From Candidatus Binatus sp. (GTDB taxonomy: Bacteria; Desulfobacterota; Binatia; Binatales; Binataceae), in contig NZ_JBEKFG010000003.1 of the NCBI RefSeq assembly GCF_050013435.1, forward strand, positions 12,455 through 76,454: a stretch of 64,000 nucleotides of DNA, read 5' to 3'. A program made the position numbers and the translations under genes. Below, in pieces: positions 4,942-17,021 of the stretch. A model generated the notes under the pieces. The model saw only the letters and a list, made by a program, of their open reading frames with translations. It had not been told where the DNA came from and searched no databases. How positions within the stretch are numbered: the first letter of the stretch is position 1; every line of letters begins with the position of its first letter.

Positions 4942-5820
4942 ATGCCGCTTGAATCATCGATTGTGGGCAGCACGGGTGCGCCAATGGTCAGCGAGATCGA
5001 TTCGCGCTGGACGATGGCCTATGCCGCCGCGCTTGGCGACGCGATGCCCTGCTACATGGACACCAATCGCGCCGTGATTGCGCATCCGATGTTTCCGGTC
5101 TGCTTCGAATGGCCGGTGCAGGTCGCGATGCGCGCGCAGTTCGAAAAATCCTCCACGCTCACGCGCGACGAGGCGATGCGCGCCGTGCACGCGACGCATG
5201 ACACTGTCCTATATCGCCCGATTCTGCCCCCCGAGCGGCTGACGACGCAGCTCACGGTCGCGGGAGTCCAGCGGCGCACGCCCGGCGCGTACATGGTCAC
5301 GCGCCTCGATACCATCGATGGCGCAAGCAAGCCGGTTTGCACGAGCTGGTATGGCGCGCTCTATCGCGGAGTTGAGGTCAAGGGGCCCGATATTCCGCCG
5401 ACGCATCCGCCAGCGCCGTTGCAACCGATCGTCGAGGAAGGCGAGCCGCGTTCGCAGTGCCGGGTCGATGTGCCGTCGGGCATGGCGCACATCTACACGG
5501 AGTGCGCGCGAATCTTCAATCCGATACACACTGACGCATCGGTAGCGCGCGCCGCCGGGCTGCCCTCGATCATCCTGCACGGCACCGCGACGCTCGCGAT
5601 GGCAGTGTCACGAATCATCGAGAGCGAAGCGGGCAACGATCCTGCGCGAATTGAAAGAATTGCGGGCCGTTTCGGCGCGATGGTGATGATGCCCTCGACG
5701 CTGACGGTGCGGGTGCTGGGGCGCGATGACAGCGCGGACAGGGCGGCGGTCTTCTTCGAGACGTTGAGCGGCGAAGGCGGGCTTGCGATCCGCGAGGGAC
5801 TTGTGGTGTTGCGCGCGTAG
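4942..5820 (+). CDS. MaoC/hot-dog (R)-hydratase family protein (double hot-dog)
   Basis: Hydratase-2 motif IFNPIHTD..VA..AGLPSIILHG. Confidence 0.8.
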   Translation: MPLESSIVGSTGAPMVSEIDSRWTMAYAAALGDAMPCYMDTNRAVIAHPMFPVCFEWPVQVAMRAQFEKSSTLTRDEAMRAVHATHDTVLYRPILPPERLTTQLTVAGVQRRTPGAYMVTRLDTIDGASKPVCTSWYGALYRGVEVKGPDIPPTHPPAPLQPIVEEGEPRSQCRVDVPSGMAHIYTECARIFNPIHTDASVARAAGLPSIILHGTATLAMAVSRIIESEAGNDPARIERIAGRFGAMVMMPSTLTVRVLGRDDSADRAAVFFETLSGEGGLAIREGLVVLRA

Positions 5821-5836
5821 TTCACGACGAGTTCTG

Positions 5837-7078
5837 CTAATCGAACTGTTCGTCGGAGGGTTTGACGGCGCGGAACTGAATCAGCAATGCGATGTCGTAA
5901 ATTGTCTTGAGCGCGCCCGCGCAAATCAGCGGCCATCCAAATGACGAATGATTCAGCATCGCGCCCGCCGGCAACGGCGCCATCGCCGCTGCCAGGCTGC
6001 GCGGCACATTGGTCACCGTCGCCGCGGCCGCGCGCTCCTCGGGCGGCACCACCGCCATCACATACGACTGGCGCGCGGGAACGTCCATCTGCGAGGTCGA
6101 AAAGCGCAGCAGCAGAAATGTCATCGCCAGCCCCGGGGTCGGCATCAACGCCGCGACGATCAGCATGACGTTCGACGGCAGATGGCTGAACACCATCGTG
6201 TTGATCCGGCCGAACCGCGCCGAAAGCGCCGACGAAATAAACTGTGAAAACGAGCCAAGCAGTCCGGCCGCGAAAAAAAACGTGCCCGCCACTTGAACCG
6301 AGAGGTTGAAGCGCCGAAACAACCACAGCGCCAGCAGCGACTGAATTACGAATCCGCCGCCGAGCGAGTCGAGACTGAACAGCGCCGAGAGCCGCAGCAC
6401 GATTGCCCGCGACTTCGCCAGCGGCGCGGACCTGGCGGGCTGGCGCTCGACTTCGACGGCCGGGGAGAGACGCCGATAAACCGCGAACGCAATCACCGCG
6501 ATGATCGAGTATGCGACGAAGCCCGACCGCAGCGCCGGCGCGAGCGCCCATCCATGGCGCGCCGCGAGGATCGCCGGCACGCCACTGGCCAGCGCGCCAA
6601 ACGCACCAGCCGTCGCGCCCGCAACATTGTACAGCGCGAACATCGCGGTCAGATCGCGAGGCTCTGCGGCCTCGGCCAACGCCGCCTGTTCGACGGGCAG
6701 AAACAGGCTGACGTCGCCAGCCGATGGATTCAGCGTGCCGACGACCGCCACCACGAACAGCAGCCAGAAGCTCTCCGTGGTGGCGAATCCTATCCCCGTT
6801 GCCAGCATCAGCGCGCACGCCGCAAGCAGGACTCGACGCCGGCCCAGCCGATCGGTGGCCAGCCCCACCCATAGCGTTAACGCCGCCGAGCCCAGCAGCG
6901 TGCCAAACACGATTGCGCCGACGCGGAGCGGATTGAAGCCGATCGCGGTCAGGTAACTTGGCAACAATATGCTGACTGCCCCGTCGGCAAGGCCGCGCAG
7001 CGCGCGTGTCGCCAGCAGCAGCTTGGCGTCAGTCGTAGCGCTGCGCGGGAACCATCGACTGATCGGACTCACCCTCAT
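5837..7078 (-). CDS. MFS transporter
   Basis: About 12 hydrophobic segments; motif A GLATDRLGRRR. Start chosen at ATG 7078 (MRVSP) because the longer ORF overlaps the divergent RRE gene. Confidence 0.85.
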   Translation of the reverse strand: MRVSPISRWFPRSATTDAKLLLATRALRGLADGAVSILLPSYLTAIGFNPLRVGAIVFGTLLGSAALTLWVGLATDRLGRRRVLLAACALMLATGIGFATTESFWLLFVVAVVGTLNPSAGDVSLFLPVEQAALAEAAEPRDLTAMFALYNVAGATAGAFGALASGVPAILAARHGWALAPALRSGFVAYSIIAVIAFAVYRRLSPAVEVERQPARSAPLAKSRAIVLRLSALFSLDSLGGGFVIQSLLALWLFRRFNLSVQVAGTFFFAAGLLGSFSQFISSALSARFGRINTMVFSHLPSNVMLIVAALMPTPGLAMTFLLLRFSTSQMDVPARQSYVMAVVPPEERAAAATVTNVPRSLAAAMAPLPAGAMLNHSSFGWPLICAGALKTIYDIALLIQFRAVKPSDEQFD

Positions 7079-7277
7079 CTGGCCGAAACCTAACCCCCTA
7101 GCCCTTCCCAACGTGGGAAGCGGAACAATCGCATTGAGATGGTCTATAAGGCGCGCGCCGCCAAGGGAAGCCAATAGCATAACGCTCTGTTCGCCGATCC
7201 GCTGCTTGTGGCATACTCGTGGCCTCTGCGCGTGTTTTGGGGAGCAATCGTCCACGGCCATCCGAAGGGAAAACTTG

Positions 7278-7562
7278 ATGCGCGTCGAAATCAGCGATGG
7301 CGTCATATGGCGGGATCTCGGCGGCGACGTAGTCATCCTGAACGTCGAAACCGGCATCTACTTCGGCCTCGACGGCTCGGGTGGCCAGATATGGCGCGAA
7401 CTCGTCGAACACGGTTCCATTGAGAAAACCTTCGCGTCGCTAAAGCAGCAGTTCGATGCCGAGCCCGACGAATTACGCCGCGACCTCGACGCTCTCGTGG
7501 ATCAACTTGTCGAAAAGAGACTCGTGCATCTGATCGCCGAACGCAAAGGTCGTTTGCGATGA
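7278..7562 (+). CDS. PqqD-family RiPP recognition element (lasso B1 protein)
   Basis: 94 aa MRVEISDGVIWRDLGGDVVILNVETGIYFGLDGSGGQIW...LRRDLDALVDQLVEKRLV: the 3-strand/3-helix PqqD pattern, directly upstream of the cyclase. Confidence 0.9.
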   Translation: MRVEISDGVIWRDLGGDVVILNVETGIYFGLDGSGGQIWRELVEHGSIEKTFASLKQQFDAEPDELRRDLDALVDQLVEKRLVHLIAERKGRLR

Positions 7563-7608
7563 CGCCGAGGCTGGAGGCATCGGGCCGTCACCTCGGCGCT
7601 TCGATCTA

Positions 7609-9561
7609 ATGAGCGGCATCGCGGTCCTCTATCAATGGGACGGTGCTCCAGCAGACCGCTCGACCGTCGAGCGGATGATTGAGGTCATCCCGTACCGCTC
7701 GGTTGACGGCTTCGGCGTATGGGGCAACGGCCCGGTCGCAATTGGGCATGCAAAGCTCCAGACGACGCCCGAAGCTTCGGCCGAGACCAGCCCGTTCGTG
7801 GACGAAGCCAGCGGGCTCGTTCTATCGATGGACGGGCGGGTGGATAACCACGACGAACTCGCGGCGGAGTTGAACTCGCATGGTCATCGTGTTCGCACGG
7901 GCACTGACGCAGAGATCATGCTTCGCGCCTGGCAGCGCTGGGGTGCCGAGGCGCCTGCGAGAGTCATAGGCGATTTCGCGTTCGCCTTATGGGACCCATC
8001 GAAGCGGACGCTCTTCTGTGCCCGGGATCCTCTAGGAGTGAAGAGCTTCTACTACTTCAATGGCCCGGGGTTCTTTCTGTGCGCCTCGGAGCTTCATCAA
8101 CTGTTCCAGGATCCAAGGGTCGTACAAAGACCGAACGAGCCTGCTGTAGCCGAGATGCTGGTGAGGCTCCCGGTTGATCGCGAGGAGACACTCTTCGAAG
8201 GTATCCGCCGCCTCGAGCCCGCGCATTATCTGAGCGTGAGCGCGCGTGGCGTGGAACGCCGGCGCTATTACGATCTGGACGCCTCACGGGAGATCACCTA
8301 TCGGAGCGACGACGAATACTCCGATCATTTTCTCTCACTGTTCAAGGAGGTGATGCGATGCCACCTTCGCAGCAACAAGGGAGTCGCCTCGGACCTGAGT
8401 GGCGGGCTTGATTCCGGATCGATTGTCTGTGTGACCGAACAACTACGCCGCGACGGCGAAGTGCAACTCCCGAATTTTGAGACCTTCACGGTTCGCTTCG
8501 ACACCGGACCCGCGGCCGAGGCTGAGTACGTCGAAGAGGTCTTGCATAAGTATCCTCATCGCCATACCTACGTTCCTCCAGGCATGGCCCCGCTCGGCCA
8601 ACTCATTGCCCAGGTTGCGCACTACCTGGACCTTCCGGATTTTCCCAACTCTGTATGCGCCGATTACACGCCGCTGCTTGGCAATCGTAACGACCTGAGA
8701 GTTCGGCTGACCGGTCTGGGCGGCGACGAGTGGTTTGGCTCGACCTACGCTGCATACGCCGACCTGTTGAAGCAGTTTCGCATCGTCGCGCTGTTGCGCA
8801 CGCTGCGGATTGATCGAAACCAACCGGCCGGATTCGCGCCTTTTCCGGGCTATGCCAATGCTCTGGTGCGGTATGGAGTCTTGCCACTCGTGCCCTACCG
8901 CCTCAAAGCGGCGCTCAGGCCATGGCTGCGTCGCCCGCCCGAGCCTCCCGCGCTGGTCGTACCCGCGTTCGCGGCCAGGATGAAACTCATGGACCGGCTG
9001 TCTGCGAGGCAGCCGTGGCCCCGATGCCGCAGCTTCGCGCAGCAGCTCCTCTACCAGGGCTACTCGTCCGGATGGCTCTCGTACGCGCTCGAGATGGACG
9101 CGCGCTGGACCGCGGGCTTTCGACTGGAGGGACGCAGTCCCTTGCTGGACCGCCGGATACTCGAGTTTGCCTTCGCCATACCTGATAACCAGCGCTTCAG
9201 GCCCGGCGTTAGCAAGTTCGTGTTGCGCAATTCGATGCGCGGAATCCTGCCGGAGCGAATCCGGCGGCGGTCTTCCAAGGCTGACCTGACGGAGTTACAC
9301 CCGATGGCGCTAATCGCGCTTGGTGGAGAGCGGCTGTTCGATCGCCTCAACGTCGTCAAAAACGGATGGGTCGACGGAGTTGCTGTGCGCAGGCTCTACC
9401 GCTCGATGGCTGAGGCGTTTTCGCGCCGCGATCCCTCCTACATGGAGAATGTCCTGGAACTATGGAATATCTTTGCGGTCGAACTCTGGCTCAACGTGGT
9501 GTTTCTCGGTATCAGCGAGCCTTTCAAGCACATAACCGAAACCAGCGCAGCGGCTTTGTGA
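7609..9561 (+). CDS. Asparagine synthetase-like lasso peptide cyclase (C protein)
   Basis: AsnB-like; PP-loop LSGGLDS, GLGGDE, RSPLLDRR. N-terminus is MSGIA, lacking the glutaminase Cys. Clustered with RRE and precursor. Confidence 0.85.
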   Translation: MSGIAVLYQWDGAPADRSTVERMIEVIPYRSVDGFGVWGNGPVAIGHAKLQTTPEASAETSPFVDEASGLVLSMDGRVDNHDELAAELNSHGHRVRTGTDAEIMLRAWQRWGAEAPARVIGDFAFALWDPSKRTLFCARDPLGVKSFYYFNGPGFFLCASELHQLFQDPRVVQRPNEPAVAEMLVRLPVDREETLFEGIRRLEPAHYLSVSARGVERRRYYDLDASREITYRSDDEYSDHFLSLFKEVMRCHLRSNKGVASDLSGGLDSGSIVCVTEQLRRDGEVQLPNFETFTVRFDTGPAAEAEYVEEVLHKYPHRHTYVPPGMAPLGQLIAQVAHYLDLPDFPNSVCADYTPLLGNRNDLRVRLTGLGGDEWFGSTYAAYADLLKQFRIVALLRTLRIDRNQPAGFAPFPGYANALVRYGVLPLVPYRLKAALRPWLRRPPEPPALVVPAFAARMKLMDRLSARQPWPRCRSFAQQLLYQGYSSGWLSYALEMDARWTAGFRLEGRSPLLDRRILEFAFAIPDNQRFRPGVSKFVLRNSMRGILPERIRRRSSKADLTELHPMALIALGGERLFDRLNVVKNGWVDGVAVRRLYRSMAEAFSRRDPSYMENVLELWNIFAVELWLNVVFLGISEPFKHITETSAAAL

Positions 9562-9637
9562 CGATCGTCGCTGCGCTATTCGCGCTGTAAACGCTGTCGC
9601 AACGTAAGGCAGAGCGAACTGAAATGGAACGAGTAAA

Positions 9638-10777
9638 ATGTCTTTGATGCTGGATGAGCATCGCCTGTATCTTTCCGACCTGACCCGAACCTCATTGTTT
9701 CGACGGGCGATCAACGCGGTGGTCAAGCCGGGCGATGTCGTGCTCGACATCGGCTGTGGAACTGGGGTGCTTGGCCTGCTCGCGATGAAGGCCGGAGCCG
9801 CAAGGGTGTACCAGATTGACCAATCGCCCATGATCCAGGTCGCCCGCGACGTGGCATCTGCCAATGGTTACGGGCAAAGCACGATCGGGATTCACGAACG
9901 CTCCGGTCGTGCCAAGCTTCCCGAAAAGGCCGACGTCGTCGTTGCCGATCAGCTGAGCCACTTCGGAATTGGCGCCGGGATGCCCGAGGTATTCAACGAC
10001 GCCCGCCGGCGTCTCCTCAAGCCGGGCGCCCGCGCGATCCCTCGACGCATCGAACTCTTCGTCGTCCCGGTGAATTTCCCCGACATGTGGCGCATCGCCA
10101 GCTTCTGGGACAAACGCCATGCGGGGCTGAAGATGTCGTCGGCACGCAGTATTGCATTCAATACCGTTTACCCCAGCGAGAAGAGCCCGCGCCGGATGCT
10201 GGGCAAACCCGCGCGGATGTTCAGCTTTGACCTTACGGAGCTGACGCCGGAACGTTTCTCTGCCAAGGCCGCGATCGAGGTTTCAGCGGCCGGCGTTATG
10301 CACGGTCTCAGCGGATGGTTCGTTGCCGAACTGGCGCCGGGCGTGATCATGACCAATTCGCCCTTTCGCAAAAGCCGAATCCAACGGTCCGCCGCGTTCT
10401 TTCCGGTCGAGAAGCCTTTAGCGCTGAGCAAGGGGGATCGCCTGGATATCACGATGACTGCTATCAGCACGCAGAACCTCCTTAGCTGGAAGGTGGAGGT
10501 CTTCAATACCAAGGGTAGGGAAAAAGCACGGTATGTTCATTCCACGCTCAAGGGAATGTCACTCATGCCTGAAGAATTGGCGAAGACACGACCAGACTTT
10601 GTGCCACGGCTGTCGGATTGGGGTGCGGCGCGAAGATCAGTGATGAACCTGGCCGATGGAACACGTATACTGGCCGAAATAGAAAGGGAAATGCTCCGAC
10701 TTCACTCGGATCTTTTCCCATCAATAGCCCATGCGTCGGAGTACGTCACCAAGGTTCTCATGACTGACTTGACCTAG
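9638..10777 (+). CDS. Class I SAM methyltransferase, PRMT-like fold, with C-terminal RRE-like helical extension
   Basis: H..YLSD..RT..F..AI, VLDIGCGTGVL, LLKPG..IP, HGLSGWF..EL: PRMT-like architecture. Confidence 0.8.
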   Translation: MSLMLDEHRLYLSDLTRTSLFRRAINAVVKPGDVVLDIGCGTGVLGLLAMKAGAARVYQIDQSPMIQVARDVASANGYGQSTIGIHERSGRAKLPEKADVVVADQLSHFGIGAGMPEVFNDARRRLLKPGARAIPRRIELFVVPVNFPDMWRIASFWDKRHAGLKMSSARSIAFNTVYPSEKSPRRMLGKPARMFSFDLTELTPERFSAKAAIEVSAAGVMHGLSGWFVAELAPGVIMTNSPFRKSRIQRSAAFFPVEKPLALSKGDRLDITMTAISTQNLLSWKVEVFNTKGREKARYVHSTLKGMSLMPEELAKTRPDFVPRLSDWGAARRSVMNLADGTRILAEIEREMLRLHSDLFPSIAHASEYVTKVLMTDLT

Positions 10778-10870
10778 GTCGTCGTCTTGCATACGCTGAG
10801 TGCGCGTTTCGAATTAGGTAGCGCATCCGTATCTTGACCAGCTTCGGCGAATCAGGAAGGGCTACGTCGG

Positions 10871-10899
10871 TTGCAACAAGCGTAAGTATCTTATATAAA
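10871..10899 (+). promoter_or_regulatory. Putative sigma70 promoter for the lasso precursor
   Basis: TTGCAA (10871-76), 17-nt spacer, TATAAA (10894-99), about 55 nt upstream of the precursor ATG in an AT-rich gap. Confidence 0.55.
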
Positions 10900-10953
10900 G
10901 TAACCTGACGTTCTGATGCGAGGCGAGATGCAATTGGAGTTTAGGGGTTGGAG

Positions 10954-11124
10954 ATGACCAAAAAAATTAAGATAGACGGGCAGAAGCCTCGGACGCAGAG
11001 CGTCAAGAAACCTTATGCCCGTCCTCATCTCGTAGAGTACGGCAACGTGGCAAAGCTCACAGCTTCGGGTGGGACTGCTACTCCGGTTGACTCCATGTCA
11101 GGCATGACCGGACCCCCGATGTGA
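10954..11124 (+). CDS. Lasso peptide precursor (A), 56 aa; not in the ORF track
   Basis: Manual translation MTKKIKIDGQKPRTQSVKKPYARPHLVEYGNVAKLTA|SGGTATPVDSMSGMTGPPM*. Leader motif YxxPxLxxxGxxxxxT with Thr at -2; Asp at core position 9. Confidence 0.92.
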   Translation: MTKKIKIDGQKPRTQSVKKPYARPHLVEYGNVAKLTASGGTATPVDSMSGMTGPPM

Positions 11125-11192
11125 CCTCCGAACCTGCGAGCCAGCAGATCGTCTGATTTCCAATCGAGGTTCGTTATCCGGCTGATTGCGCG

Positions 11193-12299
11193 TTGTCAAT
11201 ATCACAGTCGGCTGCGGTGCCTGCGCAAGAGAGCCGGCACAATCGGGCGTTGAGGCAAATCGAACGGTCTCAACCGGAAATTTCCTGGGCGTCGCGAACC
11301 GTCACTGACCCAAGCAAAACACCGATCCCGGTCTTTCGACAGCACGCTTACGGGCTGCGAATCGTTACAGACATCCCGCTTCCGGAGCTTGCCGCAATTC
11401 GGGTGTCGTCGGTCAGGTCGGCGATTCGTGCGACTCTTGGCGGCCGCTTTCAGCGCATCCGCCTCAATCCCCGATGGTACCTGCGTTCGCGGCTTCCAGG
11501 CGGCGGGACTTGGCTGCGCTGCGGCAAGACCGAGGGTGGCTACGTACTCTCCTTTGCTAACATCGCCGACTTTATCATTGACAGCTCCGGAAGCCAGGTA
11601 GTCTGCTGCAACGCGAGCAGCGACGTTAGCCTCGAGACCATTCGTCATCTCCTGATTGACCAGGTGCTTGCGCTGATCGTAAACCTGCGCGGCCGGGAGG
11701 CCCTGCACGCTACTGCGGTCGCGACGCACAGCGGCGTTTGCGCATTCACGGGGCCCGCAGGGTCGGGCAAGTCAACGCTCGCCGCGAGCTTCGTCCTATC
11801 GGGATATCCGCTGGTCTGCGATGATTGCCTGGCGCTTTCCGAAGGTAAAACGATTACGGCGCTCCCCGGTTATCCGGGCCTGCGGCTGTGGGATGATTCG
11901 ATACGCGCGCTCGGCGCAAGTTCACGGAATCTGAAGCCGGTTGCGCACTATACGACGAAATCGCGCTGGCAAGACCACTCGCGACGCGCCGACTTCTGCT
12001 CGACGACACGCCGACTCGCGCGCATCTATCTGCTCGAGCGCGCGCGATCGAGCAAACGCGCAGCCCGCGTCCTGATCGAGGAGCTCGCTCCCGGCGAGGC
12101 GCTGATGGGGCTGGTCAAGGCGGCCTACAGGCTCGACATCACCGACCAAGCGATGCTGACGCGTCAGTTCCAGTTCCTGTCCCGCGTCGCCGAGCGCGTC
12201 CCGGTCAAACGCCTGATCGTGCCCAACGAATTTTCCGCACTCTCCGATGTAAGACAGGCGGTGCTGCGCGACTTGAGCAATCGCCGGCCGCCCCGCTGA
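11193..12299 (+). CDS. HPr kinase-related P-loop kinase (putative lasso peptide kinase)
   Basis: LHATAV, Walker A GPAGSGKST, LVCDD, PGYPGLRLW. Start codon (TTG) uncertain. Confidence 0.8.
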   Translation: MSISQSAAVPAQESRHNRALRQIERSQPEISWASRTVTDPSKTPIPVFRQHAYGLRIVTDIPLPELAAIRVSSVRSAIRATLGGRFQRIRLNPRWYLRSRLPGGGTWLRCGKTEGGYVLSFANIADFIIDSSGSQVVCCNASSDVSLETIRHLLIDQVLALIVNLRGREALHATAVATHSGVCAFTGPAGSGKSTLAASFVLSGYPLVCDDCLALSEGKTITALPGYPGLRLWDDSIRALGASSRNLKPVAHYTTKSRWQDHSRRADFCSTTRRLARIYLLERARSSKRAARVLIEELAPGEALMGLVKAAYRLDITDQAMLTRQFQFLSRVAERVPVKRLIVPNEFSALSDVRQAVLRDLSNRRPPR

Positions 12300-12329
12300 G
12301 CGCTATACCGGGGCGATAGATTTCTCAGC

Positions 12330-12365
12330 AAAAAAAAGCTCCGCGGGTCGCAGGACCCGCGGAGC
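12330..12365 (-). terminator. Rho-independent terminator
   Basis: 12-bp stem GCTCCGCGGGTC-GCAG-GACCCGCGGAGC next to an A8 tract (U tail on the minus strand), between convergent genes. Confidence 0.8.
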
Positions 12366-12408
12366 CATCAAACGATCATGACTCAAGCCTGAAATTTTCC
12401 AGCGCCGA

Positions 12409-13395
12409 TCAGAACGTGACCAGCGGAATGCAGGCGGGACTCGACACGCCGTCGGCGTTGGCCGTGCCCCAGTCATTGCCGACCCACTGATTGTCGCCGC
12501 ACGTGCTGCTCGCGTCGTGGAGATCGTAGCCGCTTGTTACACCATTGCCCGATGCCTTGATGAGGTAGACCACATCATCAGTGGTCTTTTCACTTGCATC
12601 CAGGAAAATTCCGTCACCCTGGTTACCGGTGACCGCGGGTGTAGTAGTCGTCCCTATGGGCGCATCGCCCACCCGAACATCGGAATTGGAGCCGCAACCA
12701 GACGTGCAGCCTACGTGAACACCAGCGCCGCCGTTATCCGTCGCTGTGAATACGTTGATCCTCGCGCCGCTCGAGTGTGTTATAAGCACGCCGTCGGCGC
12801 CATTGCTTGAAGCGTCGAAGTCAGTAGCTATGCACTCATCGGTGCATTGATTGAAGTAAACACCCTGCTTGGTGTTGCTGTCCGCGGCAAAATTGGACCA
12901 CGTCGACGTCGCTCCGCCCGACGTGCCGTTCAGCTCCAGCCCGATTTGGTTGTCCTCCAGGGTGACGTTATCGCCAATGCTATTGTTCGACTGATCCAGG
13001 ATGCCATATTTAAACCCGGAGATTGTGCTATTAAAGCCTTCGATCACGTCATTATCGGCTGCGCTTGTGATATTGATTCCCGCTCCAGTCGAGGTCGCCC
13101 CAGGGCCCGTGATGCTGTAACCGAAGAGATCCAGGGTGCTGTTGCTGCCAGTCATATTGATACAGGTGCCGGTGCCAGACTCCGTGAGGTCGTTCGCCAG
13201 CTGATAGATAGTGTCGCTCCCGCTCAGCGTCCCACACGCGGTGACGGAGGTGGGATCTACAGCGTTCGCAGACGCATGATGCTTCTTCGCCCAAGCGGCC
13301 TGTGGGCCAGTCAGGACCAGCGCTACCGTCAAAGCAAGAAAAGATACGCCAGGAGCGCCTATTCTCCGAAAAAACCCTCTTTTGATCGCCTTCAT
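12409..13395 (-). CDS. Secreted right-handed beta-helix (pectin lyase-like) repeat protein
   Basis: Signal peptide ending AWA; repeats such as SNTKQGV, SNGADGV, DNGGAGV, GNQGDGI; several Cys; AAGGAG RBS before ATG 13395. Confidence 0.7.
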   Translation of the reverse strand: MKAIKRGFFRRIGAPGVSFLALTVALVLTGPQAAWAKKHHASANAVDPTSVTACGTLSGSDTIYQLANDLTESGTGTCINMTGSNSTLDLFGYSITGPGATSTGAGINITSAADNDVIEGFNSTISGFKYGILDQSNNSIGDNVTLEDNQIGLELNGTSGGATSTWSNFAADSNTKQGVYFNQCTDECIATDFDASSNGADGVLITHSSGARINVFTATDNGGAGVHVGCTSGCGSNSDVRVGDAPIGTTTTPAVTGNQGDGIFLDASEKTTDDVVYLIKASGNGVTSGYDLHDASSTCGDNQWVGNDWGTANADGVSSPACIPLVTF

Positions 13396-13757
13396 ATCGT
13401 TTATGCTCCTTCGCTTTTCTTTCGTCTTCCCTAACGACACATCATTCGTAGTGGCGTCTTCGCAACCCTTGCTCTTGGAGGTTTATTCAGAACCTGCCGA
13501 AGTAGACTTGGCAATGGTTTACGACCGACGGCGCATCATTCCATTTCGCCTGTCTTCAGTCAAGTGGTTCTATGACGCCCGTTGACGGCTTTGTTGTTCG
13601 ATTTTAGTCGTTAGATGTCGTAGATTAGGCTCAGCGACGAAAATCTCTACAAGTTGTTATTCTATCGCCCACAAAACGAAAGCGGCTGTCACCGATAGAT
13701 ACACTTGTAAGCCGTACTTGGTTCCAGCTCGCGCCTGGGGCTGTTATTGATAATTCC

Positions 13758-14969
13758 GTGGAATTCGACTCCCTCCTCGACCTTGCCGACTTGCCCATCG
13801 AAGCGGCGCTCGTGCTGTGCTGCGCGACAACCGCGGCCACGCCCGTGCGCACGGAGCTCGCGTCCGACCTTGCGCCGCGCGTACGCAGTTGGGACCGCGT
13901 CGTCGATATCGCCAAACGTCATGCGGTGCTCCCGCTGGTACATCGCTATCTGAAGCTCGAATGTCCGACCGCGGTTCCGGGTGAAGGGCTTGCGAAGCTG
14001 CGGACGCAGTGGCAGATGATCATTCTCTACAACCGTCATCTGACCGCCGAACTTGTGCGCCTGATGGGCCTGCTGAAAGCGGCCGGAGTTCCGGCGGTCA
14101 CCTTCAAGGGCCCGGTGCTTGCCGCGATGGCATACGGATCGATCGAACTTCGCCAGTTCAGCGATCTGGATATTCTCGTGCGTCAGACTGACCTGCCGCG
14201 GGTCGCCGAAATACTCACCGCCGAACGATATTTGTCGCCGCATACCAGGCGCGAAGGCCTCGCCACCGGCTACTTTCAGGAGTACGAGGACGCCTTCGCC
14301 GGACCCGACGGGCTGGGCGCCGTGGACGTTCATTGGGACCTCACGCCGCGCTCGTTCCGTTTCGCCCCCGACGAGGAAGGCCTGTGGCGGCGCGCGCACG
14401 AGGTCGATCTGGAGCTCGGCAAAGTGATGGCGATCGCGCCCGACGACCTGTTGCTGTACATCTGCGTGCACGCCGCGAAGCATGGATGGGTCACGCTCGG
14501 ATCGATCTGCGATGTCGCCGAGACCGTTCGGGCCCGTCCGGAAATCGATCTGATGGGGATACTTGACGAGGCAGCCGCGCTCGGGAGCCGCCGAATGTTC
14601 CTGACCGGCATCTGGCTGGCGCACGAGCTGGCCGGCGCGCCGATTCCCGCCGATCTTGTCCGGCTGGCTCGCGGCGACCGCGCCGCCCGGGCATTGGCAG
14701 GACGCGTCGCGGGGCAACTGTTCAGCGGAGCCACGCAGGGACGGGCAGACTTCGATCCGTGGGCGGTTCCGATCCGCTCGATCGAGGGCGCACGCGCGCG
14801 AATCCGCTACATCGTCCGCCGAATGCTGGCGCCGACGATGGGCGACTACGAACTCATCCCGCTGCCGGCAGCGCTCTTTCCGCTCTACTGGGTGATTCGG
14901 CCGTTTCGGATGGCGGTGCAATACGGGCCGCGGCTGGTCCGCGGCTCTTCGAAGAGCTCGAACACGTGA
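13758..14969 (+). CDS. Nucleotidyltransferase family protein (NTP_transf_5-like, lasso-cluster associated)
   Basis: FKGPVLA..AYG..LRQFSDLDILV, VDVHW, LLYICVHAAKH motifs. Confidence 0.85.
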   Translation: MEFDSLLDLADLPIEAALVLCCATTAATPVRTELASDLAPRVRSWDRVVDIAKRHAVLPLVHRYLKLECPTAVPGEGLAKLRTQWQMIILYNRHLTAELVRLMGLLKAAGVPAVTFKGPVLAAMAYGSIELRQFSDLDILVRQTDLPRVAEILTAERYLSPHTRREGLATGYFQEYEDAFAGPDGLGAVDVHWDLTPRSFRFAPDEEGLWRRAHEVDLELGKVMAIAPDDLLLYICVHAAKHGWVTLGSICDVAETVRARPEIDLMGILDEAAALGSRRMFLTGIWLAHELAGAPIPADLVRLARGDRAARALAGRVAGQLFSGATQGRADFDPWAVPIRSIEGARARIRYIVRRMLAPTMGDYELIPLPAALFPLYWVIRPFRMAVQYGPRLVRGSSKSSNT

Positions 14970-15002
14970 GCAGTCTCAATTTTTGATTTTTCAGTGGATT
15001 TT

Positions 15003-15078
15003 TGGTGAGCCGGCCGGGACTTGAACCCGGGACCCTGTGATTAAAAGTCACATGCTCTACCGCCTGAGCTACCGGCTC
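15003..15078 (-). tRNA. tRNA-Lys(UUU)
   Basis: Reverse complement GAGCCGGTAGCTCAG...GACTTTTAATC...GGTTCAAGTCCCGGCCGGCTCACCA; anticodon TTT; CCA encoded. Confidence 0.97.
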
Positions 15079-15536
15079 GCCCGAGAGCTTTCAATGCTTA
15101 CAGGTAATTCGAAGGATTGGGAATAGTCGCGACTTCCGAAGTCGGTTCCGCAACGCCGCCGCGCTGCGATTTCAACTATGCATGTGCGGCGAAAACTCTA
15201 TCTTTAGACACTCAAATTAGCTCAAAGCGTGGTGCAGGTTACCAGCAGAGCGACCGAAATGAGGGCGCTGCAGGCGCCACGCTATGTCATTTTCTGTCAA
15301 AGTTTCTGTCCAGCGACGTCATAGTTGCACCGCGCGCATCACGGTGAAGAGCGCAATGACAAAACATAAGTTGACTAGCCTTTGCCCAAAATCAGGAGTT
15401 GCTGCGCCGACCTGCTTGACAGGCAACCCACTACTGGAATATATCCAAACCCTACAAATTAGTAGAGCAGGTTTGGGGAATAAGCGGAAGTCAGAAGTTA
15501 GAAGTTAGAAGAGTCAGCGCTCGAGGGGAACTGAAG

Positions 15537-16760
15537 ATGCGCCTACATGAGTACTCGGCGAATGGATCGTCGGTCGCGACTGCGAGGCAGAATCTTGGCG
15601 CCCAGCCGTTGGACGCAACGTCCGAGTGGTTGAGCCTGGCGGAACTTGCGCACGGGTCGGAACGGATCGGCGGGGCGGTGGTGCGGTCGGCGCACGCGCG
15701 CAAAATACTCAAAACCATTTCACGCTTGAGTCCGTACAAGTCGACCGTGCTGATTCACGGCGAATCCGGAACCGGCAAGGAACTGGTCGCGCGCGCGCTG
15801 CATACGATGGGCTCGGCGCCAAACGGCCCGTTCGTGACCTTCAATTGCTCCAACCTGGTCGATTCGCTGGCAGAGTCGCAGCTTTTCGGTCATGTGCGCG
15901 GCGCATTCACCGATGCCCGCGAGGATTCGCTCGGCTATTTCCGCTCCGCCAGTGGCGGAACTCTATTTCTGGACGAAGTCGGCGAGCTTCCGCTGCACCT
16001 GCAGCCCAAGCTGCTGCGCGCGCTCGATACCCACGAGATTCAGCCGGTCGGTTCGTCACGCACCTACTCGGTTGATATCCGGCTGGTCGCGGCAAGCAAT
16101 CGCAACCTGCACGCGATGGTCAAGGCGGGGCAATTCCGCGACGACCTCTACTACCGGCTTAACGCGGCGGCAATCCTGGTTCCGCCGCTTCGCGACCGGC
16201 GCGAGGCAATCCCGGCCTTCATCGCTCATTTTATCGAGCACTTCAACCGCCTGTTCGGCAAAGATATAAAGCTCGTATCGCGGACCGCCGTGGACGCGCT
16301 GTGCGCCAACCAGTGGCCCGGCAACGTCCGCGAGCTTGGCCATGCAATCGAGAGCGCGGTTCTGATGACCGAAACTGATCGTATCGATCTCCACGACCTG
16401 CCTTTGCGCCACGACGATGCGAATCCGCAAGTGCTGGTCGAGCCGGTCGGGAAGGTGCTGCAAAACGGCGGGCTCAATCTCGAAGGCGGGCACAATAGCG
16501 CCGGGATTGACTGCGAGAAGGCGTCGCAGCGGTGCTTCGAAATGGCGACCTGGCCTTACTCGCTCGACGCGGTAATCCGCGAGGCCTCGAAACTCGCGCT
16601 GGTTCGCGCGCTGCAAGCGACCCAGGGCAATTGCCATCGTGCGGCCGAGCTGCTGGGCGTATCGCGCTACACGGTTTACCGAATGCTGAACCGGTTTGGC
16701 CTGGGCGAAGGCCATACCTACCGGACGCTGCGCAAGTCGACGGTACGCCGCGCGTCCTGA
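15537..16760 (+). CDS. Sigma54-dependent transcriptional activator (AAA+ plus Fis HTH), no obvious sensory domain
   Basis: GESGTGKE, ESQLFGHVRGAFTDA, LFLDEVGE, WPGNVREL; C-terminal AAELLGVSRYTVYR. Confidence 0.9.
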   Translation: MRLHEYSANGSSVATARQNLGAQPLDATSEWLSLAELAHGSERIGGAVVRSAHARKILKTISRLSPYKSTVLIHGESGTGKELVARALHTMGSAPNGPFVTFNCSNLVDSLAESQLFGHVRGAFTDAREDSLGYFRSASGGTLFLDEVGELPLHLQPKLLRALDTHEIQPVGSSRTYSVDIRLVAASNRNLHAMVKAGQFRDDLYYRLNAAAILVPPLRDRREAIPAFIAHFIEHFNRLFGKDIKLVSRTAVDALCANQWPGNVRELGHAIESAVLMTETDRIDLHDLPLRHDDANPQVLVEPVGKVLQNGGLNLEGGHNSAGIDCEKASQRCFEMATWPYSLDAVIREASKLALVRALQATQGNCHRAAELLGVSRYTVYRMLNRFGLGEGHTYRTLRKSTVRRAS

Positions 16761-17021
16761 ATCCCCTCTGACGGCCTCTCCCGGTTTGCGACTGGCGACC
16801 TGACTCGCCAGCCGCGGGAGCGGCTATGACCTCAAGCGGAAAGGCCTAAGAAAAAACGACTGGATTTCCCGAAAGATGGACAGTACGCGATCGATCCTGT
16901 ACACCTGACTCGGTTACAGGAGGTCGGGTCCTGGAGCCGCGAACGGGAAGCGACCTGACGGGCTCCGTGGGTTGTTGAGCACGCTGCGCCCGCGGAAGGC
17001 GCAGTAAAGGGCAAGGCGCGC

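Follow-up and report, generated by a model that had tools for sequence, protein, structure and literature searches.

Genes and features of the locus

The DNA analysed, referred to below as the window, is a stretch of 64,000 nucleotides from a Binataceae metagenome-assembled genome (MAG) of peat origin, which amounts to 3.57 Mb on 150 contigs at 94% completeness. The gene cluster under study lies at positions 7278-14969, bounded on the right by a tRNA-Lys gene. On the evidence of its genes, it probably forms part of a functional lasso peptide biosynthetic system of this peat bacterium, whose leader peptidase and exporter genes would lie outside the window on another contig, and with a methyltransferase (MT) of the PRMT (protein arginine methyltransferase) fold among the candidate tailoring enzymes. 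A first-pass annotation of the same DNA had placed a recognition element, a cyclase, an MT, a precursor and a kinase in one direction, followed by a beta-helix gene, a nucleotidyltransferase (NTase) and tRNA-Lys, and had supposed the host to be probably of a poorly studied lineage. All of the genes it named were recovered at the same positions by open reading frame (ORF) listing and tRNA scan, the gene order and direction were borne out by the ORFs and family scans, and the Binataceae are indeed uncultured. It had also named PF05402, PF00733 and PF14907 as families to search for, and all three gave matches. The features are as follows:

7278-7562, forward strand: B1, the recognition element (RRE) for peptides made on the ribosome and modified after translation (RiPPs), PqqD family, 94 amino acids (aa) (PF05402, E 1.4e-16)
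7609-9561, forward strand: lasso cyclase (C), asparagine-synthase-like, 650 aa (PF00733, E 1.4e-39, plus GATase_7 and GATase_6)
9638-10777, forward strand: PRMT-fold S-adenosylmethionine (SAM)-dependent MT, 379 aa (PrmA PF06325, E 2.8e-12; PRMT_C PF22528, E 5e-9)
10954-11124 (ATG start, 56 aa) or 10948-11124 (TTG start, 58 aa), forward strand: precursor peptide (A) with leader motif
11193-12299, forward strand: HprK-like P-loop kinase (K) of at most 368 aa, the start codon being uncertain (TIGR04352, E 2.4e-9)
12337-12366, strand unassigned: strong hairpin between the convergent kinase and beta-helix genes, with a 13-bp stem including 10 G-C pairs
12409-13440, reverse strand: secreted NosD-like right-handed beta-helix protein (Atlas language-model feature score 0.96)
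13758-14969, forward strand: PF14907 nucleotidyltransferase (N), 403 aa (PF14907, E 3e-58)
15003-15078, reverse strand: tRNA-Lys (UUU), the right-hand border (ARAGORN; Rfam RF00005, 72.3 bits)

All of the reading frames within 7278-14969 are intact.

Cyclase, RRE and precursor of the window

The cyclase is the sole lasso-type cyclase in the genome. Its best NCBIfam model is the lasso cyclase model NF033535 (416.9 bits against a cut-off of 525, the match lying mainly over positions 1-400), as compared to 244.1 bits with the asparagine synthase model TIGR01536 and 211 bits with the PEP-CTERM amidotransferase, which agrees with the first-pass reading of the cluster as one for a lasso peptide. Residue 2 is a serine and not a cysteine; Cys2 is the catalytic nucleophile of glutamine-hydrolysing AsnB. 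The RRE matches NF033536 (lasso_PqqD_Bac) at E 3.5e-13, below the cut-off of that model, and its nearest solved relative is the lasso RRE TbiB1 (5v1u; E 2.8e-9).

The ATG of the precursor gene at 10954 is preceded at 6-7 nt by AGGGG, and the homologues begin at the same methionine. The product matches NF033528 (E 4.8e-4) and NF033521 (E 0.0041), in both cases under the cut-off, and a motif scan of window positions 5001-17000 on both strands returned 10954-11124 and no second candidate precursor. Counted back from the predicted cleavage site, the leader carries Y-17, P-14, L-12 and T-2, and the predicted core is SGGTATPVDSMSGMTGPPM. The mature peptide is predicted to contain a ring of nine residues, closed between Ser1 and Asp9, and a Met-containing tail of ten residues. 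The core has Gly3 and Thr4, ends in Met and includes neither Arg nor Lys.

Distribution of the cluster and linkage of its genes

A scan of one genome per species yielded eight loci, all in Binataceae or in MAGs labelled 'delta proteobacterium', with MT identities of 64-92%. The RRE, cyclase, MT, precursor and kinase genes are syntenic in all eight, together with the opposite-strand beta-helix gene, and this conserved cassette points to a grouping of genes beyond chance, while the NTase was found in four of the eight. A metagenome scan with the MT alignment gave 234 confirmed relatives, of which the best 80 were kept, so that 88 loci were available together with those from the genomes. The flanking genes in these loci were sought by tblastn with the window proteins, a search that under-detects B2, the leader peptidase, and were distributed as follows, first among all 88 loci and then among the 29 fully flanked ones, which have 3 kb or more on either side:

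Cyclase: 79 of 88; 29 of 29 fully flanked
Kinase: 71 of 88; 29 of 29 fully flanked
RRE: 46 of 88; 28 of 29 fully flanked
NTase: 42 of 88; 22 of 29 fully flanked
B2: 22 of 88; 10 of 29 fully flanked

Each of the nine loci without a cyclase match, like most of those without a kinase match, lies on a short contig or on one whose end is no more than about 900 nt from the MT. Because both cyclase and kinase occur in every fully flanked locus and the misses lie on short or truncated contigs, this survey of homologous neighbourhoods, which the first-pass annotation had suggested, marks the MT by its linkage as a lasso cluster gene down to about 43% identity. The combination of MT, kinase and NTase, which that annotation had singled out as an unusual triple tailoring set, recurs in 22 of the 29 fully flanked related loci.

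The wider family of the MT is large. Among 8000 candidates, 1626 relatives scored at E 1e-5 or better, with Binataceae, Acidiferrales and Acidobacteria named for some of them in the sources, and at E 1e-30 or better there were 1118 representatives of 50%-identity clusters; of the best 150, most align over nearly the full length. Five MTs from the same phylum share 28-40% identity; two of these are accompanied by some lasso genes and three are not by tblastn. One MT at 33% identity (L123) sits in a lasso cluster. DNA nearly identical to the window was present at a share of 0.95 or more in 18 metagenome runs, 17 labelled as peat and one as wetland; 17 of these 18 runs are possible sources of the window's own DNA. 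The cyclase match is split into several pieces in two loci (L013 and L014, about 7980-11430); the MT match of L014 is likewise split, and its precursor frame ends early. This points to frameshifts in the two MAGs, either by decay or by errors of long-read assembly.

Core peptides associated with the methyltransferase

Precursor homologues occur at the same position in all eight genome loci, and homologous loci retain the lasso leader in its canonical form (Y-17 x x P-14 x L-12 ... T-2). Across 59 aligned precursors, the leader does not vary at Y, P, L, Y, G, K and T. Core statistics were drawn from 75 distinct cores of MT-linked loci. An Asp or Glu is present at core position 7-9 in all 75 (position 8 in 39, position 9 in 35 and position 7 in one), and every core contains Met or Cys. 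The tails average 10.8 residues with 2.1 Met, and 62 of the 75 cores terminate in Cys-Leu, usually after a Met-rich run. Ser or Thr occupies position 3 or 4 in 58 cores and position 3-5 in 70, none of the cores ends in Ser, Arg is present in 26 and absent from 49, and 35 contain Arg or Lys. The 13 cores lacking the Cys-Leu end include those of the window and of L007, L008, L009, L015, L016 and L017, and 11 of the 13 have a Met within the last three residues. From these alignments, the clade of the window has evidently lost the Cys-Leu ending and carries a terminal Met instead.

Five loci from the same phylum encode a kinase homologue and no MT, and their cores lack a Met-rich or Cys-Leu tail. 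The comparison of the 75 cores with these five loci, a small sample with related members, ties the presence of the MT to a sulfur-rich core tail. Three of the five (L124, L128 and L129) have precursors which end in Ser, the known target of paeninodin-type kinases, so two precursor styles, separated by the presence of the MT, coexist within one phylum. A lasso locus in a related Binataceae genome (L121) encodes a cyclase, precursor, kinase, NTase and ABC transporter and no MT, and its core has neither a Met-rich nor a Cys-Leu tail; the kinase homologue of this locus (L097, G263:C53:10912-11862) is read through one in-frame TGA.

Fold and active site of the methyltransferase

The AlphaFold2 model of the MT (pLDDT 93.4) comprises a Rossmann domain and a beta-barrel. 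The top Foldseek matches are PRMT6, PRMT2, PRMT1 and CARM1 (E 1e-24 to 4e-27; TM 0.64-0.84 across the matches shown), and the protein shares 20-25% identity with eukaryotic PRMTs over about 315 residues, so that the modelled fold is that of a type I PRMT. The alignment shows conservation of SAM motif I and of an Arg in the N-terminal helix. The MT differs from PRMTs, however, in lacking the N-terminal YFxxY helix, in an altered double-E loop with Asp104 at the first and Ala113 at the second position, in an additional C-terminal helical domain of 65 residues and in a presumed substrate without a conserved Arg. We take the invariant Asp104 to correspond to Glu144 and Ala113 to Glu153 of PRMT1, with the register counted from the shared motif III. 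Residue 112 is acidic in most of the family and Gly in the clade of the window. A conserved His-Ser-Thr presumably occupies the position of the PRMT THW loop. Among the 12 Pfam families that matched at E 0.01 or better, none was a PIMT or O-methyltransferase family.

The MT was rejected as the PrmA of this genome, given that it scores 40 bits with the PrmA model TIGR00406 (cut-off 183) and a better candidate on another contig (G000:C56) scores 149 bits. It was likewise rejected as an arginine methyltransferase, as most of the MT-linked cores, including that of the window, contain no Arg and the double-E loop is changed.

The beta-barrel is followed by the 65-residue domain of three helices, in a pattern reminiscent of the helical half of PqqD. 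This domain matched nothing in Pfam at E 10 or better and none of the RREs of the loci by hhalign or hmmsearch, and in isolation it gave no Foldseek match at E 0.001 or better, with PqqD 3g2b ranked second at E 2.5. In a wide VIA-align comparison, PqqD 3g2b was first of 48,161 chains (Z 4.9), with TfuB1 at Z 4.3 and TbiB1 at Z 4.1, scores which are tied with those of many unrelated helical domains. The modelled structure thus gives only a hint of a PqqD-like RRE. Complex prediction of the MT with the precursor returned scores of 0.02 and 0.01 against a mark of 0.32, which is uninformative for or against binding. Two loci (L040:4402-5562 and L029:2-964) each encode, beside the first, another MT paralogue of the PRMT fold that also has this C-terminal helical domain, and these paralogues account for the extra matches that had been considered as a second enzyme class carrying the domain. 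The L040 paralogue has two Glu in the active-site loop with PRMT1-like spacing, and the L040 core contains Arg.

Kinase, nucleotidyltransferase and neighbouring genes

The only family match of the kinase is TIGR04352 (HprK-related kinase A; 36.7 bits against a cut-off of 200), and its matches to HPr kinases in the PDB are weak and at the level of the P-loop (E 0.066-0.9). Alignments with its homologues begin at residues 5-42. A role as a paeninodin-type kinase of a C-terminal Ser was rejected, since the window core ends in Met and terminal Ser is absent from all 75 cores. The NTase scores 197.8 bits with PF14907 (cut-off 31.2) and matched no solved structure by sequence at E 1 or better; in most non-Binataceae loci it directly follows the kinase on the same strand.

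The beta-helix gene product has no Pfam match. The gene adjoins the kinase in all eight Binataceae genome loci and, among the metagenome loci, was found in L015-L018 and L021 only and never where the MT identity is 52% or less. It is thus best regarded, from its distribution, as a clade-specific neighbour whose role in the cluster is unproven. In L011 (12791-16465), three tandem NosD-like beta-helix copies take the place of the single copy in the window. A T run follows the hairpin at 12337-12366 on the minus strand, and this hairpin probably marks the end of the core operon. Terminator-like sites in the scan as a whole, at nine compared with 8.1 in shuffled sequences, are not in excess.

To the right of the tRNA, positions 15537-16760 encode a sigma-54-dependent activator that combines an AAA+ domain with a helix-turn-helix of the Fis type, and in which no receiver or sensor domain was detected within the first 50 residues; this gene is also kept beside the NTase and tRNA-Lys in L007, L008 and L016. 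To the left lies an MFS transporter gene, whose longest ORF (5837-7357, reverse strand) shares about 80 nt with the start of the RRE on the other strand. Where loci without an MFS gene gave short 'MFS' matches, these stem from the conserved start of the RRE read on its reverse strand, so the true start of the MFS gene probably lies further in.

Leader peptidase and exporter probably acting in trans

The window contains no PF13471 leader peptidase gene, an absence on which the first-pass annotation did not remark. The single PF13471 gene of the genome (82.2 bits) is located on another contig (C19), where an ABC transporter (6437-8290), the B2 gene (8244-8687) and a second PqqD gene (8671-9000) are encoded on one strand (L002:6437-9000), with neither a cyclase nor a recognisable precursor beside them. 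In relatives such accessory genes are joined to the cassette. One locus (L010) has an NTase and an ABC transporter that is 52% identical to that of C19 directly upstream of the RRE, and another (L011) has a B2 gene, 62% identical to that of C19, and an NTase downstream. Six of the seven ORFs tested between the RRE and the cyclase in non-Binataceae loci are PF13471 genes, and the usual order in the more distant loci is B1-B2-C-A-MT-K-N. Of five Binataceae genomes, three (G000, G317 and G174) contain a cyclase and B2 together, always on different contigs, one (G204, 98% complete) contains neither, and in one (G263) the cyclase is present and B2 was not found. The joining of accessory genes to the cassette in relatives and the co-occurrence with the cyclase single out the C19 B2 and ABC transporter as the likely working partners of the window cluster, which on this evidence from gene content is a split lasso system, its peptidase and exporter set apart from the remaining cluster. 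Downstream of the homologous cluster in L010 (14982-15695), which belongs to a Binataceae MAG, a 2OG-Fe(II) oxygenase domain is fused to a PqqD domain; this protein has no counterpart in the window and could be a further leader-guided tailoring enzyme.

Selection and transcription

In comparisons of the window with L007, L016, L008 and L009, dN/dS ranged from 0.14 to 0.33 across the RRE, cyclase, MT, kinase and NTase genes (0.24-0.27 for the NTase), which indicates that the tailoring genes are maintained even without the Cys-Leu end. Values were 0.25-0.56 for the short precursor gene and 0.44-0.73 for the beta-helix gene, the latter evolving faster than the biosynthetic genes. A 262-nt contig in one metatranscriptome assembly is identical to positions 11874-12135 within the kinase gene, and a 544-nt contig in another shares about 97% identity over 7250-7788, covering the RRE and the start of the cyclase. 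These contigs are a weak hint of transcription of the cluster, with DNA carry-over a possible source; the stretches they do not cover carry no weight either way.

Comparison with characterised lasso peptide systems

The bsf cluster of Bradymonas sediminis FA350 (bsfA/B1/B2/C/D/K/N) likewise combines an HprK-like kinase and a predicted NTase with a YxxPxL leader, and its kinase BsfK phosphorylates Ser3 of the core, aided by B1 (PMC10368454). The available text of that paper mentions no methyltransferase, however, and places B2 and D inside the cluster. Leader position -2 is Ile in bsf and Thr in the window, and core position 3 is Ser in bsf, whereas the window has Gly3 and Thr4. By analogy the window cluster may work like Bsf without belonging to the Bsf group.

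The paeninodin, SyanK and pseudomycoidin clusters pair an HprK-homologous kinase with a PF14907-type NTase, beside A, B1, B2, C and D (PMC8498205, PMC9266682). The first-pass annotation had pointed to kinases and NTases in clusters of this type; the window has a similar pair, its kinase HprK-like by weak matches, but the paeninodin analogy fails in that the precursors of those clusters share a C-terminal Ser as the phosphorylation site, which no MT-linked core here possesses. No PRMT-fold MT is described for these clusters in the accessible parts of the two reviews (PMC8498205, PMC9266682). The same annotation had held that characterised lasso MTs are of carboxyl or PIMT type and not PRMT-fold. 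This stands for the two reviews, which in their available text cover the C-terminal carboxyl O-methyltransferases LasF and StspM and the PIMT homologues of cellulonodin-2 and lihuanodin (PMC9266682, PMC8498205), and must be extended with LopH, a putative Met S-methyltransferase of another fold in a later paper, where it is described as resembling the SAM-binding domain of MTHFR (PMC10664482). Longipeptin A, the peptide concerned, shows Met S-methylation at a plug position (PMC10664482); a neutral loss of 62 Da (dimethyl sulfide), the sign of a Met sulfonium, is reported for it. The window MT resembles the known enzymes as a SAM-dependent lasso tailoring enzyme, StspM acting before folding (PMC8498205), and differs from them in combining a Rossmann domain with a PRMT beta-barrel and a C-terminal helical domain. 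No paper was found that joins lasso peptides with PRMT, PrmA, PF06325, PF22528 or Met-rich Cys-Leu cores, in a search which excluded supplements and most subscription papers, and published cluster tables may already contain unremarked members of this family.

Proposed pathway and alternative explanations

In the proposed pathway, the RRE would bind the precursor through the YxxPxL...T(-2) leader, as in its family, and the kinase, MT and NTase would decorate the peptide, most likely as the linear precursor, by analogy with StspM, ThcoK and SyanK, which act on linear precursors (PMC8498205). The kinase would phosphorylate a Ser or Thr of the ring and not a C-terminal Ser, following the example of BsfK with Ser3, and the NTase may build on the phosphate so added, for which PsmN, which adds hexoses to phospho-Ser (summarised in PMC9266682), provides a precedent. 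The MT would methylate a non-arginine acceptor. The B2 cysteine peptidase of C19 would then remove the leader, the cyclase would join Ser1 to Asp9 to give the nine-residue ring and ten-residue tail, and the C19 ABC transporter would export the product.

The sulfur of the Met/Cys-rich tail is tentatively favoured as the acceptor of the MT, as every MT-linked core has Met or Cys and the relatives without the MT lack a sulfur-rich tail, the acidic active-site loop would suit a cationic product, and longipeptin A sets an example of Met S-methylation at a plug position. A phosphate or hydroxyl oxygen appears a less likely acceptor, as to the same degree does a nitrogen, for instance of Lys, of a backbone amide or of Lys-4 in the leader; the C-terminal carboxylate is less likely again, and some other acceptor the least likely. 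Cys as the sole target was rejected, because the MT is under purifying selection in the clade without Cys. The most far-reaching reading, in which a PRMT-fold enzyme was recruited to methylate a non-arginine acceptor of the peptide, in the boldest version the tail sulfur, and acts together with a ring Ser/Thr kinase and an NTase across a widespread family, is conceivable and rather doubtful. Were the boldest version correct, thioether or sulfonium 'plugs', or a tail that binds soft metals such as Cu(I), might be expected.

Several observations weigh against a functional system of this kind. Neither a PF13471 leader peptidase nor an exporter occurs among the window genes, and the partnership with the C19 genes is drawn from five related genomes, for which the statistics are weak. 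The cyclase, RRE, precursor and kinase all score under the curated NCBIfam cut-offs. Between the NTase and the core operon lie a gene on the opposite strand and a hairpin resembling a terminator, so that co-regulation is putative. The window precursor lacks the Cys-Leu end, and Met is the only large plug residue in its tail. In the active-site loop the invariant Asp104 disfavours a carboxylate acceptor without pointing to any other in particular. Three relatives of the MT at 28-34% identity (L142, L143 and L146) have no lasso genes around them by tblastn.

The missing peptidase and exporter also form the starting point for an explanation in which the window cluster is a decaying remnant that yields no mature product. 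The absence of a PF13471 gene from the window, the loss of the Cys-Leu end there and in six related loci, and the broken cyclase or MT frames of L013 and L014 would fit such decay, which nevertheless appears unlikely: the window genes are all intact, the dN/dS values of 0.14-0.33 in four comparisons indicate constraint, near-identical DNA recurs in 18 metagenome runs, B2, RRE and ABC genes exist elsewhere in the genome and accompany the cyclase in three of the five genomes of the family, and the breaks in L013 and L014 may be long-read errors. That the MT could be a housekeeping enzyme which happens to be located among lasso genes and does not touch the peptide is suggested by its best Pfam match, PrmA, and by the names given to its relatives in the sources (PrmA, at NCBI '50S ribosomal protein L11 methyltransferase', and 'protein arginine N-methyltransferase 1'). 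This is very improbable in view of its low TIGR00406 score beside that of the C56 candidate, the position of the gene between the cyclase or precursor and the kinase in 29 of 29 flanked loci, and the way in which its presence tracks the distinctive Met/Cys-rich core.

Equally improbable is a combination of known chemistries, with the MT a true arginine methyltransferase and the kinase a paeninodin-type enzyme acting on a C-terminal Ser. The PRMT fold, the HprK-like kinase and PF14907 NTase as in the pseudomycoidin and bsf clusters, and the Arg in 26 of 75 cores are consistent with it; against it stand the lack of Arg and Lys in the window core and of Arg in 49 of 75 cores, the absence of terminal Ser from all 75, and the replacement of what we take to be the two PRMT1 glutamates by Asp104 and Ala113, with Gly at residue 112 in the window's clade. 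The functional split lasso system, with a PRMT-fold MT acting on a non-arginine acceptor, hence remains the preferred interpretation.

Implications

The locus thus appears, on genomic evidence, to be a lasso peptide cluster that is split in its architecture and includes a tailoring enzyme of a new class, its chemistry being predicted. This supports the first-pass reading of a new lasso peptide family, whose multiple modification is a prediction. The PRMT-fold MT seems to mark a large and apparently undescribed lasso family, its fold being unreported for RiPPs in the sources covered, and the Met-rich tail with its Cys-Leu end constitutes a conserved, unexplained core signature. The known C-terminal Ser is excluded as the target of the kinase. 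As scaffolds, lasso peptides are compact and resistant to proteases, their activities include antibiotic action and receptor binding, and new tailoring enzymes widen the range of their products; with 1118 MT representatives, for the closer of which lasso linkage is established, the family is large enough for expressible members to be picked. The window also offers a natural case in which the peptidase and exporter have been split off, and clusters of this kind would be overlooked or cut short by cluster-finding software that requires B2 in cis. If the proposed modifications are correct, the triple-tailored chemotype would define a widespread lasso family of uncultured soil and peat bacteria, among them Binataceae, Acidobacteriota and others.

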